Source: Candidatus Goldiibacteriota bacterium HGW-Goldbacteria-1
GTDB lineage: Bacteria; Oederibacteriota; PGYV01
NCBI GenBank assembly: GCA_002839855.1
Contig: PGYV01000002.1
Coordinates: 203,125-267,124 of the forward strand
Reading direction: 5' to 3'
DNA length: 64,000 nt
Below, in pieces: positions 3,955 to 10,513 of this stretch (the first letter of the stretch is position 1; each line of letters opens with the position of its first letter). The notes under the pieces were generated by a model. That model was not told where the DNA came from. It saw only the letters and a program-made list of their open reading frames with translations, and searched no databases. The position numbers and the translations under genes were made by a program.

Positions 3955-5349
3955 TTGGGGGAGTTGATGGATGTTGAAGGATTAAAAAAGGGGACGGTTT
4001 ATGCGGCAAGGGGAAGTGTTATTGATATTCGGTTTGCAGGAAATAAACTGCCTTTAATTAATAATCTTATATACTCGGGGGAAAATAATACTGTAATGCT
4101 TGAAGTGGCGGAGCATATAGACGAACAAACCGTCAGGTGCATCGCGCTTACTTCCGCATCCGGAATCGGCAGGGGAGATTCCGCGCATGATACGGGCGGG
4201 CCGGTTATGGTGCCGGTGGGAAATAAAGTATTGGGCAGAATGTTTGATATGTTTGGGAATGGTGCTGACAGGCTTGGGGCTGTAGACGCCGCGGAGAAAA
4301 GGTCAATTCACAGGACGCCGCCCTCTTTAAATGAAAGAAAAACAGGAAACGAGATTTTTGCTACAGGCATAAAAGCAATTGATTTATTAGCGCCAATTGA
4401 AAAAGGCGGCAAAGCCGGGTTGTTTGGGGGGGCGGGCGTCGGGAAAACAGTCCTTATAATGGAAATGATAAACAATACTGCCGTGAAACACGGCGGCATA
4501 AGTGTGTTCTGCGGTATCGGGGAAAGAAGCAGGGAAGGCGAGGAATTATACAGGCAGATAAAAGATGTGGGCGTGCTGGATAAAGCGCTTTTGGTTTTTG
4601 GGCAGATGAACGAACAGCCCGGTGCCAGGTTCCGCGTGGGGCATAGCGCGCTTACCATGGCGGAATATTTTCGGGATGACATGCAGACGGATGTGCTTAT
4701 GCTTATAGATAATATTTTCCGCTTTGTGCAGGCTGGCGCGGAAGTGTCCGGCCTTATGGGGAAAATTCCGTCGCGCGTGGGGTATCAGCCGACGCTTGCC
4801 ACCGAACTTGCGGAGATGGAAGAACGCATCTGTACCACAAGCCGCGGGGCTATTACTTCAATACAGGCGGTGTATGTGCCGGCGGATGATTTTACCGACC
4901 CTGCGGCCGTTCACACTTTCGGCCATCTAAGCTCCACAATTGTGCTTTCAAGAAAAATGGCGGCGCAGGGGCTTTATCCCGCCGTTGAACCGCTTCTGTC
5001 AAAATCAAAAATGTTAACCCCGCAGATTGCCGGTGAGCGCCATTATTCTGTCGCGGCAGAGGTGCGAAAAACCCTTTCTGAATATGAGGAGTTAAAGGAC
5101 ATAATTGCAATGCTGGGGATGGAAGAACTTTCAAAAGCCGATAAAAAAACCGTAATGCGGGCAAGGCGGCTTGAAAGGTTTTTAACGCAGCCGTTTTTTG
5201 TATCCGGCAAATATACCGGCAATGCCGGAAAAATTGTAGCGCTTGCCGATACTATTGACGGGTGCAGCAGGATATTAAATGACGAATTTGAAGCGGTGAA
5301 TGAAAAAGCGCTGTATATGATTGGGGATATTTCGGAAGTGAAATTATGA
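3955..5349 (+). CDS. atpD: F-type (N-ATPase-like) ATP synthase beta subunit
   Basis: P-loop '[17 protein letters not shown]' and the typical beta C-terminal domain. First gene of the operon. Confidence 0.92.
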
Positions 5350-5735
5350 AATTAAAAATTGTATCCCTTATGGAAAACTTTGAATTTGACGGGCTGGAAG
5401 CCGTTAATATTCCGGGTGAAAAAGGTAATTATACGATTTTGCCGCACCATATTGACTACACCGCGCTGGTATGCCCGGGGATACTTACATGCCGCGGCGC
5501 TGATAAAGGCGTAACAGATATGGCGGTGGATGAAGGGGTCCTTGTGAAAAAAGGGGATGATGTATTTATTTCCTGCAGGAACGCGGTAAAGGGCGTGTCA
5601 GGCGATCAAATAACCGCGCTTAAAGCTGTTGTCCATGAAAAATTTGAAGTAATTGATGAGGCAGAGAAAAAAACAAGGGAAATGATTTCACGGATGGAAA
5701 GCAGTTTTGTCAGGCGTTTTCTGGAGATGAAATAA
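5346..5735 (+). CDS. atpC: ATP synthase epsilon subunit
   Basis: 129 aa. ATGA overlap with the beta gene. Sits immediately after beta, as in N-ATPase operons. Confidence 0.7.
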
Positions 5736-5736
5736 T

Positions 5737-8111: not shown

Positions 8112-9660
8112 AAGTAAAAATATAAAAAGCACGCTTAATAATATGCTTGATTCCGTTTTTACAGAAGCGGAAAAGATAGCGGGTGAGAATTCCGCGTCAC
8201 TTTTACTGGGAGAGACCGGAACAGTAATTTCCGTGGGCAGGGGTATCGCATCCGTAAAAGGGCTGTTTAATGTGAAATCAGATGAACTTATAAGTTTTCC
8301 GGGAGGGTATTACGGAACTGCTTTTAATCTGGAACCGGATTATGTGTTAGTGGTGCTTCTGTCAAAAAGCGATGATATTTCCGCGGGTATGCAGGTAAAA
8401 AGAACAGGCAAAACAGTAAGCGTGCCTGTGGGCGAAGCGCTGCTTGGCAGGGTGGTTGACCCGCTTGGCAGGCCGCTGGATAACGGTGCTGAAATAGCGG
8501 CCGAAAAATGGTACCCGTCGGAAAGGCCGTCGCCGGTTATTATGGACCGCGCGCCGGTAAATATGCCGCTGCAGACAGGTATTACAGCGGTGGATGCGCT
8601 GATACCAATAGGCAGGGGGCAAAGGGAGCTTATTATAGGCGACAGGCAGACAGGCAAGACTGCAGTTGCCGTGGACACAATAATAAATCAGCGCGGCAAG
8701 AATGTGATATGCGTGTACTGCTCTATCGGGCAGCAGAATTCAGCCGCGGCAAAGGTAATTGCATCACTTAGAGACGCCGGGGCAATGGATTACACTTTTA
8801 TAGTTGTATCCGGAGGGGATGACCAGCCGGGAATGAATTTTCTGGCGCCGTATTCGGCGTGCTCTATGGCGGAATTTTTCATGGAGCAGGGAAAAGATGT
8901 ACTGATAGTATTTGACGACTTAAGCAAACACGCCCGTTCTTACAGGGAAATTTCCCTGTTGCAAAGGCGCCCGCCCGCAAGGGAGGCCTTCCCGGGCGAT
9001 ATTTTTTACATTCATTCGCGGCTGCTTGAAAGGGCAACTCACCTGTCCGCGGAAAAAGGGGGCGGCTCGCTTACCGCGCTTCCTGTGGTGGAAACAGAGG
9101 CGCAGAATATTGCGGCGTATATCCCCACAAATCTTGTCTCCATAACAGATGGGCAGATATACCTGTCGCCTAAACTATTTCAGCAGTCGGTCCTGCCTGC
9201 CGTGGATGTGGGCAAGTCTGTATCACGCGTTGGCGGTGCGGCGCAGCTTCCGGCTTTCAGAAAAACAGCAGGCGACCTTAAACTTTCATATTCCCAGTTT
9301 GAAGAGCTTGAAATTTTTGAAAGGTTTTCAACCAAACTGGATGACCGGACAAAACAGTCGCTGCTGCGCGGCCACAGAATACGCGCCGTTTTAAAACAGC
9401 AGCAGAATAACCCCGTATCTGTTATGGGGCAGATAGCGCTTTTAACCGCAGTTAATAACGGGGTGTTTGATGAAATTGCCGAAAACGCCGTGCCGGCAGC
9501 CGCGGATATTGTAAGGCAAAAGGCAGAGGCGGAATTAAAAACAATCTCGGAGAAGATACTGGCAGGCAATGAAATCACTCCGGAAGATAATATTATAATT
9601 CTGAATACTGTAAAAAAACTAATTTCAGAAAGCACAGGTAAAAACAATGCAGTCTCCTGA
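8104..9660 (+). CDS. atpA: ATP synthase alpha subunit
   Basis: P-loop 'GDRQTGKTAVAVDTIINQ'. The start codon was chosen at 'MDESKNIK', which has an RBS-like 'AAGGCGGA' upstream. The ORF-track start is 8068. Confidence 0.9.
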   Translation: MDESKNIKSTLNNMLDSVFTEAEKIAGENSASLLLGETGTVISVGRGIASVKGLFNVKSDELISFPGGYYGTAFNLEPDYVLVVLLSKSDDISAGMQVKRTGKTVSVPVGEALLGRVVDPLGRPLDNGAEIAAEKWYPSERPSPVIMDRAPVNMPLQTGITAVDALIPIGRGQRELIIGDRQTGKTAVAVDTIINQRGKNVICVYCSIGQQNSAAAKVIASLRDAGAMDYTFIVVSGGDDQPGMNFLAPYSACSMAEFFMEQGKDVLIVFDDLSKHARSYREISLLQRRPPAREAFPGDIFYIHSRLLERATHLSAEKGGGSLTALPVVETEAQNIAAYIPTNLVSITDGQIYLSPKLFQQSVLPAVDVGKSVSRVGGAAQLPAFRKTAGDLKLSYSQFEELEIFERFSTKLDDRTKQSLLRGHRIRAVLKQQQNNPVSVMGQIALLTAVNNGVFDEIAENAVPAAADIVRQKAEAELKTISEKILAGNEITPEDNIIILNTVKKLISESTGKNNAVS

Positions 9661-10513
9661 GGAGGTAAAAAGAAAACTATCCGGGGCTGAATCTTTAAAG
9701 TCAATAGTGCGCACAATGAAGGTGCTTGCCGCGGTAAATGTCAGGCAGTATGAGAAGATGTCTGATGCTATTGACAGGTATAACGAAATTGTGGAAATGG
9801 GTTTCAGGGTGTTTTTGGGTAATGAAGAAAAAAATTATAATCCGGCGCCGGAAGAAGAAAACACCGGATATATTGTACTGGGTTCGGATATGGGCATGTG
9901 CGGAAGGTTTAATGACCAGATAGCAGCGTATGCTTTGGAAAAAACAGGTAATAATACAGATACAGTGATGGCGGTCGGCGACAAAGTTTCCGCCAAGCTG
10001 GAAGACGCAGGGGTTAAGCCGGCGGAAACTATTATTTATCCGGCAGTCCTGTCCGCGGGCATTGTGCCGCTTCTGCGGGAGATAATTCTTAAAATTGACG
10101 GGTGGCGGGAGACCAGAGGCATAAATTCCATAAGTGTATGCTATAACAAACCGGCAGATTCACTGTCGTACAATCCTGTTATGAAAAAGATTCTTCCCAT
10201 GGAGCCGGAATATCTGGAGCAGTTAAGAAAAAAAGAATGGAAATCCCGCAGCCTTCCTATATATAAAGAAGATAGGGAGAAGTTATTCTCCGGCCTTGTT
10301 AAGAATTATATTTATGTAGCGCTATACAGGGCGTTTGTGGAATCGCTTGTAAGCGAAAACACGGCAAGGCTTATTTCCATGCAGGCGGCGGAAAAACATA
10401 CCGCAGAACGCATAGAGGAGCTGACACTGGAATACAACATGGAACGCCAGGACGCCATCACCTCTGAAATCCTTGACATCATCGCCGGCGCAGAAGCGGT
10501 GGAAGGGAAGTAA
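9647..10513 (+). CDS. atpG: ATP synthase gamma subunit
   Basis: 288 aa. Last gene of the operon. Its C-terminal 'ITSEILDIIAGAEAV' is gamma-like. Confidence 0.8.
   Translation: MQSPEEVKRKLSGAESLKSIVRTMKVLAAVNVRQYEKMSDAIDRYNEIVEMGFRVFLGNEEKNYNPAPEEENTGYIVLGSDMGMCGRFNDQIAAYALEKTGNNTDTVMAVGDKVSAKLEDAGVKPAETIIYPAVLSAGIVPLLREIILKIDGWRETRGINSISVCYNKPADSLSYNPVMKKILPMEPEYLEQLRKKEWKSRSLPIYKEDREKLFSGLVKNYIYVALYRAFVESLVSENTARLISMQAAEKHTAERIEELTLEYNMERQDAITSEILDIIAGAEAVEGK

Follow-up and report, generated by a model that had tools for sequence, protein, structure and literature searches.

Is an N-type ATPase operon in a candidate-phylum bacterium the laterally transferred sodium pump for which it is easily taken, or a proton pump native to its lineage? 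The question is raised by a 64,000-nucleotide stretch (hereafter the window) of Candidatus Goldiibacteriota bacterium HGW-Goldbacteria-1 (assembly GCA_002839855.1, contig PGYV01000002.1, positions 203,125 to 267,124 of the forward strand). An initial annotation of this stretch had recognised a complete N-ATPase operon, to which it ascribed a lateral origin, a proposed role in Na+ extrusion and a bracket of mobile-looking repeats. The locus is a complete and correctly recognised N-ATPase operon, atpDCQRBEFAG, and a member of a family that has already been catalogued, to which it adds a Goldbacteria example. On balance, we favour a functional chromosomal enzyme, probably an outward H+ pump, which is vertically inherited in the Goldbacteria lineage and to which the repeats are unrelated.

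Gene order and family of the operon

Nine consecutive open reading frames (ORFs) occupy 3967-10513 on the forward strand, and neighbouring ORFs overlap or are separated by gaps of at most 21 nt:

3967-5349, +, atpD, F1 beta subunit, 460 aa (TIGR03305, 737 bits against 632.6 for canonical atpD)
5346-5735, +, atpC, epsilon subunit, 129 aa (PF02823, 2.2e-12; TIGR03166, 96.1 bits against 32.5 canonical)
5737-6051, +, atpQ, small membrane protein, 104 aa (PF09527, 58.7 bits; TIGR02230, 90.5 bits)
6064-6372, +, atpR, small membrane protein, 102 aa (PF12966, 29.2 bits)
6356-7027, +, atpB, Fo a subunit, 223 aa (TIGR03306, 272.1 bits; NF004481, 270.8)
7049-7327, +, atpE, Fo c subunit, 92 aa (TIGR03322, 127.3 bits; NF009998, 123.4)
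7329-8111, +, atpF, long b subunit, 260 aa (TIGR03321, model positions 1-245 of 246)
8068-9660, +, atpA, F1 alpha subunit, 530 aa, or 526 aa if started at ATG 8080 (TIGR03324, 747.1 bits; NF009884, 687.7)
9647-10513, +, atpG, F1 gamma subunit, 288 aa (TIGR03323, 262.8 bits against 144.6 canonical)

The Pfam assignments of the nine ORFs are far past chance, with E-values of 8.5e-71 for beta (ATP-synt_ab), 7.4e-78 for alpha (ATP-synt_ab and ab_C), 5.4e-60 for gamma (ATP-synt), 6e-16 for AtpQ (ATPase_gene1, PF09527) and 1.3e-06 for AtpR (PF12966). The families matched in ORF order also include ATP-synt_DE_N (epsilon), ATP-synt_A, ATP-synt_C and ATP-synt_B. The order beta-epsilon-AtpQ-AtpR-a-c-b-alpha-gamma read by the initial annotation was recovered from the Pfam and NCBIfam matches and agrees with the reference operons. 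Direct comparison with the Escherichia coli operon showed that it differs from the canonical atpIBEFHAGDC order. Since the intergenic gaps leave no space for it, a separate delta gene is not present within the operon.

For all seven core subunits, the NCBIfam model of the “alternate F1F0 ATPase”, which is the TIGRFAM name for N-ATPases, outscored the canonical model, for example with 127 bits against 44 for the c subunit and 182 against 64 for the b subunit. Curated cutoffs were passed in the matches to NF004481 (a subunit; cutoff 227), NF009998 (c subunit; 116) and NF009884 (alpha; 554), and the TIGR02230 score of AtpQ is above its cutoff of 46.7. According to Dibrova et al. (2010, PMC2881411), atpR is the “tell-tale” gene of N-ATPases, while atpQ is not exclusive to them. 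The window AtpR matches PF12966 above its gathering score of 26, and only reaches 23.4 bits against TIGR03165 (cutoff 55.5). It aligns along its full length with its counterparts in Picosynechococcus sp. PCC 7002 (plasmid pAQ7), Acaryochloris marina (plasmid pREB4), Hymenobacter and three metagenomic operons, and its R47 is invariant in nine of nine sequences; Dibrova et al. describe conserved Arg residues in two transmembrane segments of AtpR (2010, PMC2881411), and a second basic site of the alignment is Gln in Goldbacteria (see below). In the beta subunit, the Walker A (GGAGVGKT), catalytic GERSRE and Walker B motifs are all intact. The a subunit has the essential Arg R164 (R210 of E. coli) within an invariant RLFGN.

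In a neighbor-joining tree of a small taxon sample, with alpha serving as root for beta and vice versa, the window proteins fall inside the N clade with bootstrap values of 100 (alpha) and 92 (beta), grouping with the PCC 7002 pAQ7 and A. marina pREB4 references. The F clade of E. coli, Shinella and Subdoligranulum is separate (bootstrap 100 for both alpha and beta). Gene order, AtpQ and AtpR, the “alternate” models and the N-clade position, together with the two-Glu c subunit and the delta-like b subunit described below, support the recognition of a complete N-ATPase-type operon.

Like the Goldbacteria operon, the operons of PCC 7002 and A. marina lack delta and encode a long b subunit in the same gene order. 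Beta is 63% identical to that of PCC 7002 and 60.5% to that of A. marina, and AtpR aligns with an invariant Arg. The two cyanobacterial operons, however, are plasmid-borne, come from marine organisms and have been described with a full set of Na+ ligands, whereas the Goldbacteria operon is chromosomal, belongs to an anaerobic candidate phylum, and shows ESLxxY in the c subunit and Gln at the second basic site of AtpR. It also lacks the antiporter gene inserted in the A. marina operon. The E. coli F1Fo enzyme has homologous alpha, beta, gamma, epsilon, a, b and c subunits, with conserved catalytic and ion-path residues. It differs in gene order, in having atpH, in having AtpI in place of AtpQ/AtpR, in its shorter b subunit (156 aa against 260 aa, the latter with a delta-like C-terminus), in a beta subunit only about 50% identical, and in its separate clade.

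The initial annotation opened the operon at 3955, where an in-frame TTG lies 12 nt upstream of the ATG at 3967. The ORF itself stands, and the TTG is probably not the start, because gene callers use the ATG at 3967 and this start is kept in the related genome. An identical operon, including an exact copy of atpG, is found in two independent public assemblies, with beta called from ATG 3967. In the NCBI annotation of HGW-Goldbacteria-1, AtpR (CVV21_02410) and the b subunit (CVV21_02425), to which the window proteins are 100% identical, are named “hypothetical protein”. The likely reason for such generic names is that the scores lie just under the curated cutoffs (values below), and the present assignment corrects them.

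Stator, coupling ion and probable role

N-ATPases are known to lack delta and to have a b subunit of unusual length, which aligns with delta at its C-terminus (Dibrova et al. 2010, PMC2881411). The Pfam OSCP profile gave no match to the C-terminus of the window's own b subunit even at E = 10, so the link between b and delta rests on orthologs, hhalign and fold. Aligned b-subunit orthologs match OSCP (PF00213) at profile positions 104-172. In hhalign, the b-subunit profile pairs residues 156-242 with E. coli delta 84-171 (E = 0.0023). An AlphaFold 2 model, built from an alignment of homologs obtained by protein search (mean pLDDT 78.5), consists of a long helix followed by a beta-alpha-beta-beta-beta-alpha domain, and its best matches in the PDB are the mycobacterial b-delta fusion, V-ATPase subunit E and delta/OSCP chains. 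These three lines of evidence indicate that the stator is a b subunit fused with part of delta, consistent with published N-ATPases. The arrangement of a long helix followed by a C-terminal alpha/beta domain resembles both the mycobacterial b-delta fusion and subunit E of V/A-ATPases. However, the mycobacterial protein (about 440 aa) holds the whole of delta, whereas the Goldbacteria b subunit holds only its C-terminal part (about OSCP 104-172).

The c-subunit residues were matched by alignment to the c subunit of Ilyobacter tartaricus and to four other N-type c subunits. E30 in helix 1 corresponds to I. tartaricus Q32, E63 corresponds to E65, and Leu65 takes the position of Thr67. With E30 and E63-S64-L65-A-I-Y68, the site has a Glu in both helices, which is the two-carboxylate signature of N-ATPases. 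In the packing motif of helix 1, Val and Ala stand in place of two glycines, and the ring may therefore be large. The Na+ ligand set, [Q/E]...E-[S/T]-[S/T/Q]-x-x-Y, is incomplete because its third position is Leu rather than Ser, Thr or Gln. The Na+ motif of N-ATPase c subunits was given as ESTxxY by Dibrova et al. (PMC2881411). In the ProAD survey, Na+ is predicted only if Glu is followed by [S/T]-[S/T/Q], and about half of the 1807 N-type ATPases found in GTDB r202 were predicted to use H+ and about half Na+ (PMC11738941). The sole N-type ring tested biochemically, that of Burkholderia pseudomallei, has 17 subunits with E30/E61/T62/M63/Y66 and is H+ selective, a result that ran counter to the earlier sequence-based prediction (PMC5376962). 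The two c subunits share the pair of carboxylates (E30 and E61 there, E30 and E63 here) and a hydrophobic residue at the Thr67-equivalent position (Met in B. pseudomallei, Leu in Goldbacteria). They differ at the site of Goldbacteria Ser64, which is Thr in B. pseudomallei, whose ring size and ion specificity have been measured (Schulz et al. 2017, PMC5376962). Since ESLxxY fails the ProAD rule and the Burkholderia ring provides a precedent, the coupling ion is fairly likely to be H+ rather than Na+. The Na+-extrusion role put forward in the initial annotation is accordingly not favoured for a c site that lacks the third polar ligand. An N-type operon is thus not automatically a sodium pump.

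Family knowledge and the intact residues suggest how the enzyme may work. The alpha3beta3 head would hydrolyse ATP and thereby turn the gamma-epsilon shaft and the c-ring. In every c subunit, E63 would carry the ion and a protonated E30 would serve as hydrogen-bond partner, and R164 of the a subunit would bring about the release of the ion outside. The stator would be the long b subunit, with its C-terminal domain standing in for the C-terminal half of delta, and AtpQ and AtpR may be small membrane accessory or assembly proteins. N-ATPases have been proposed to be pumps, not synthases (PMC2881411). They are nearly always the second enzyme of a genome, although the Chloroflexota genus T78 mostly has an H+ N-ATPase alone (PMC11738941). 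The enzyme of the window is most likely an ATP-driven outward ion pump rather than the ATP synthase of the cell.

Several points weigh against a functional proton pump that works as a second enzyme. All seven “alternate F1F0” scores are slightly under the NCBIfam trusted cutoffs (beta 737 against 752, alpha 747.1 against 750.5, gamma 262.8 against 282.35, a 272.1 against 302.1, c 127.3 against 130.85, b 181.7 against 224.7, epsilon 96.1 against 100.1). The second basic site of AtpR (GFxxxR) is Arg or Lys in all six non-Goldbacteria sequences and Gln (Q78) in all three Goldbacteria sequences. Ser64 and the helix-1 Glu are ligands of the Na+ type, and the choice of ion is predicted from sequence alone. 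It was argued by Dibrova et al. that the helix-1 Glu could complete the Na+ shell when Thr is missing, since it may give two ligands (PMC2881411). Finally, the direction of pumping comes from the family and not from this organism, and a second, primary ATPase is only presumed for this genome.

Among the other explanations, Na+ coupling is the most serious, and we regard it as possible but clearly less probable than H+ coupling. The operon would then encode an ATP-driven sodium extrusion pump, as was first proposed for the family. The retention of E63, S64 and Y68, with Glu where I. tartaricus has Q32, would agree with it, as would the full ESTxxY motif in the Methanothrix relative of the operon (see below) and the large share of predicted Na+ enzymes among all N-ATPases. 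Leu65, in contrast, replaces the Thr, Ser or Gln demanded by the ProAD rule, and the B. pseudomallei ring, likewise hydrophobic at this site, is H+ selective. Upstream of the operon there is no Na+ riboswitch, nor an Rfam match of any kind. The neighbouring membrane pyrophosphatase, from its GNSTKA and DIFESYE motifs, also resembles the K+-independent, H+-pumping type.

It is unlikely, in our estimate, that the operon encodes the only rotary ATPase of the organism, an enzyme that would be primary despite its N-type build and act as the proton pump of a fermenter or as an ATP synthase. The T78 precedent and an operon that is native in composition, conserved in position and under purifying selection (see below) would fit this explanation. 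No other alpha/beta or A/B homolog was found among the annotated ORFs of the window or in extensions of 7-10 kb on each side, and a tblastn search with alpha and beta over 743 kb of Goldbacteria-like loci recovered only the known operon. These 743 kb, however, consist of 27 genome and 71 metagenome loci pulled by a 24-mer of the repetitive extragenic palindrome (REP)-like repeats described below; they are scattered and come from other populations, not from the window's own genome, of which contiguous reading covered about 3%. Because the sample is small and mixed, the missing second ATPase carries almost no weight. Opposed to a sole enzyme are the nearly invariable second place of N-ATPases and the divergence of alpha (76.5% identity between two Goldbacteria) and beta (85%), which is much faster than that of the pyrophosphatase (95%) and YchF (97%) and is unlike that of an essential housekeeping synthase. 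Were the operon nevertheless the sole enzyme, a whole candidate phylum of cellulolytic fermenters would have, as its primary ion-motive ATPase or ATP synthase, an H+-coupled, delta-less and vertically inherited N-ATPase alongside a membrane pyrophosphatase. With T78 as the first, this would make a second exception to N-ATPases being “always the second”. The finding gains weight only if the genome has no other rotary ATPase. The literature that we found on the energy metabolism of Goldbacteria (Goldiibacteriota) does not mention ATPases.

Inheritance of the operon and the flanking repeats

The window was compared with a related Goldbacteria metagenome-assembled genome (MAG; GCA_029565735.1), in which the operon lies at 10001-16567 of the locus L003. 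There it is found in the same place, after a glycoside hydrolase family 9 (GH9) gene and two LacI genes, and the downstream genes differ. Across all nine genes, dN/dS between the two genomes is 0.06-0.18, which indicates that they are maintained by purifying selection. The GC content of the operon (0.449) and its GC content at third codon positions (GC3; 0.470) match those of housekeeping genes of the window, among them the aspartyl-tRNA synthetase and pyrophosphatase genes. Given the native composition and the same upstream neighbours in a related species, there has been no recent transfer at this locus, and vertical inheritance within this Goldbacteria lineage would account for it. The lateral transfer ascribed to the operon therefore holds at the level of the family and not as a recent event here; an N-type operon is not automatically a recent arrival.

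The nearest relatives outside Goldbacteria are from a Desulfobacterium-like bacterium, a Methanothrix archaeon and an unassigned contig, with beta identities of 67-74%. All three keep the nine genes, AtpR among them, in this order and lie in unrelated genomic surroundings, which fits the patchy distribution described for N-ATPases (PMC2881411). Between the two Goldbacteria, gamma is 70%, b 57.5% and AtpR 55% identical, and the LacI proteins, as conserved neighbours, are 84-91% identical. For most operon genes dS is 0.6-2.6, against 0.34-0.75 for the LacI, pyrophosphatase and YchF genes. Relaxed constraint could explain why the operon has diverged faster, as could its replacement by an allele of more distant origin.

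The sequences on either side of the operon that bear on its expression and mobility are:

3666-3867, +, upstream repeat block: TAAGC-type motif, 3.9 copies of GTCCCTCT and 6.1 copies of CCAAGCCT
3868-3901, +, predicted sigma-70-type promoter: TTGTTT-17-TATACT at 3868-3896 or the overlapping TTGCCG-17-TATATT at 3873-3901
10595-10837, +, four GTAG-headed, GC-rich REP-like hairpins, with an array of 13 TTTGTA units between two of them

In the promoter scan, the TTGCCG/TATATT pair matches nine of twelve positions and is predicted to be followed by a 5′ untranslated region of about 65 nt. Conservation in the related MAG is high between CTTGTTTT and the start codon and does not extend to the sequence just upstream. 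The operon would thus be transcribed from a conserved promoter at about 3868-3901. Control by a riboswitch or another RNA element was considered and set aside, as nothing was found in a scan of the whole window at Rfam gathering thresholds or in an E-value scan of 3600-4000.

The REP-like core, YTGGTAGACGCGGGTCTTCAGCCCGCGGCAGTTG, consists of a GTAG head and a GC-rich hairpin, and occurs in the window at 10595-10837 (+) and 21637-21679 (-) and in the loci L007-L106. For the four hairpins at 10595-10837, folding energies are -6.5 to -9.3 kcal/mol and z-scores -2.7 to -3.5; for the hairpins as a whole, the energies range from -6.5 to -9.5 kcal/mol. Scans for the exact 24-mer TAGACGCGGGTCTTCAGCCCGCGG returned 27 stretches from GTDB genomes, of which the related Goldbacteria MAG accounts for 22, and 71 stretches from metagenomes. 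Its copies have 65 distinct, unrelated flanks and a conserved core of about 34 nt. Conserved across Goldbacteria species, this 24-mer is accompanied by variants that keep the GTAG head and the hairpin. The cluster at 10595-10837 may serve as the 3′ end of the operon or as an mRNA stabiliser and lies outside the enzyme genes.

A second component, in a few intergenic regions, is formed by tandem arrays of 6-8 nt units, namely GTCCCTCT, CCAAGCCT, TTTGTA (13 copies), CTGTAAC (13.6 copies) and ATAAGCAG, which lie at 3666-3867, 10672-10750, 10853-10933, 21709-21765 and 39908-40068 of the window and at 9650-9870 and 16567-16960 of L003. They are often beside REP hairpins and directly upstream of promoters. 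The repeat families D2 and D3 occur at 3771-3867 and 10853-10933, with a third copy at 21709-21765, and arrays recur upstream of the pyrophosphatase gene (21559-21765). The array sequence differs in the related species, where the TAAGC motif is amplified to units of about 45 nt, three upstream and six downstream of the operon, followed by an inverted copy.

GTAG-headed palindromes are known in Proteobacteria as REP elements and bacterial interspersed mosaic elements (BIMEs), which are mobilised by REP-associated tyrosine transposases (RAYTs). The Goldbacteria elements resemble them in the GTAG head, the GC-rich hairpin, the dozens of dispersed intergenic copies with unrelated flanks, and the frequent clustering at 3′ ends of operons. 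They differ in their host and in being combined with short-period tandem arrays. The repeats are genome-wide REP-like hairpins and short tandem arrays, not the borders of a mobile operon, because the operon has a native base composition and a conserved position and the repeats occur at dozens of other loci. The bracketing noticed in the initial annotation is real, yet it is no marker of mobility, in view of the third copy and of the genome-wide family. Flanking repeats should be checked across a genome before they are called mobile.

Two further explanations concern the history and state of the locus. We give very little credence to a recently acquired mobile cassette, bounded and moved by the flanking repeats. 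Related repeat blocks do flank the operon on both sides, N-ATPase operons have been transferred between phyla and are in some cases plasmid-borne, and the nearest relatives outside Goldbacteria have unrelated flanks. However, the same repeats precede the pyrophosphatase gene, the GH9-LacI-LacI-operon synteny is kept in a species with 85% beta identity, the segment that is anomalous and variable is not the operon but the downstream one at 11209-21415, and no integrase or transposase gene is adjacent to the operon in the window. A decaying, non-functional remnant is more improbable still. The low identity of AtpR, b and epsilon between the two Goldbacteria (55-63%) and the scores under the NCBIfam trusted cutoffs could be taken as signs of decay, but the nine reading frames are intact, with stop and start codons that overlap or abut, the dN/dS values are low, and every catalytic residue checked is conserved. 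We therefore retain the reading of a functional operon inherited within the lineage.

The Goldbacteria 24-mer is also carried by contigs L025 (JAKJFV010000214.1), L011, L024 and L032 of MAGs labelled Spirochaetes, Firmicutes and Cyanobacteria. L025 additionally has a pyrophosphatase fragment with 94.6% identity to that of the window. These are probably mis-binned or mislabelled Goldbacteria contigs.

Neighbouring genes and sequences

Between the operon and the pyrophosphatase gene lies a low-GC island (11209-21415; GC 0.31-0.40, GC3 0.24-0.37). It encodes an FGE-sulfatase-domain protein, a leucine-rich repeat protein, tetratricopeptide repeat proteins, an 808-aa protein without matches, and an orphan DndB/DpdB-like protein (PADLOC DpdB, 2.2e-14). 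No counterpart of these genes was found in those parts of the related MAG that were fetched. On either side of the island lies a composite repeat block (10510-10933 and 21559-21765), and the hairpins of the two blocks are mutually inverted. If the repeats bracket anything, it is this variable island. A segment of 220-250 nt is duplicated with 85-90% identity at 10935-11189 and 16927-17181. Within it lie a near-consensus promoter (TTGCCA-17-TATAAT) and a small ORF that is conserved (MELGAKNRFSFLPV...), and each copy precedes a long ORF (11209-12471 and 17234-19660); the segment may be a shared leader or regulatory region.

The membrane-integral pyrophosphatase gene (21858-24167; PF03030, 844 bits) is 11 kb downstream of the operon. 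Its counterpart in the related MAG (L034 11889-14672, 95% identical) is on the same contig as the operon, 23 kb downstream of it. The NCBIfam name “sodium-translocating pyrophosphatase” was not used as evidence for a Na+ economy, because all sibling models share this name and the GNSTKA motif of the K+-independent type speaks against it. A regulatory element shared by the upstream regions of the N-ATPase and pyrophosphatase genes was also considered and rejected: in the two-species alignment, each region is conserved only with its own ortholog, and nothing but the variable low-complexity arrays is common to both.

The genome for which the phylum Goldbacteria was named comes from Horonobe deep groundwater and is rich in cellulases (PMC5520028), and the GH9 gene of the window fits this character. 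The interval between GH9 and the first LacI gene holds, at 918-1431, a ParE toxin gene together with a small antitoxin-like ORF, neither of which is at the same position of L003. Further downstream, the window contains a MacB-type efflux system (OEP-HlyD-MacB) at 35742-39906 and a housekeeping block at 43114-52229 with plsX-fabH-fabD-fabG-fabF, RNase III and an acyl-CoA dehydrogenase with EtfB/EtfA. A pyruvate phosphate dikinase gene is located directly past the end of the window.

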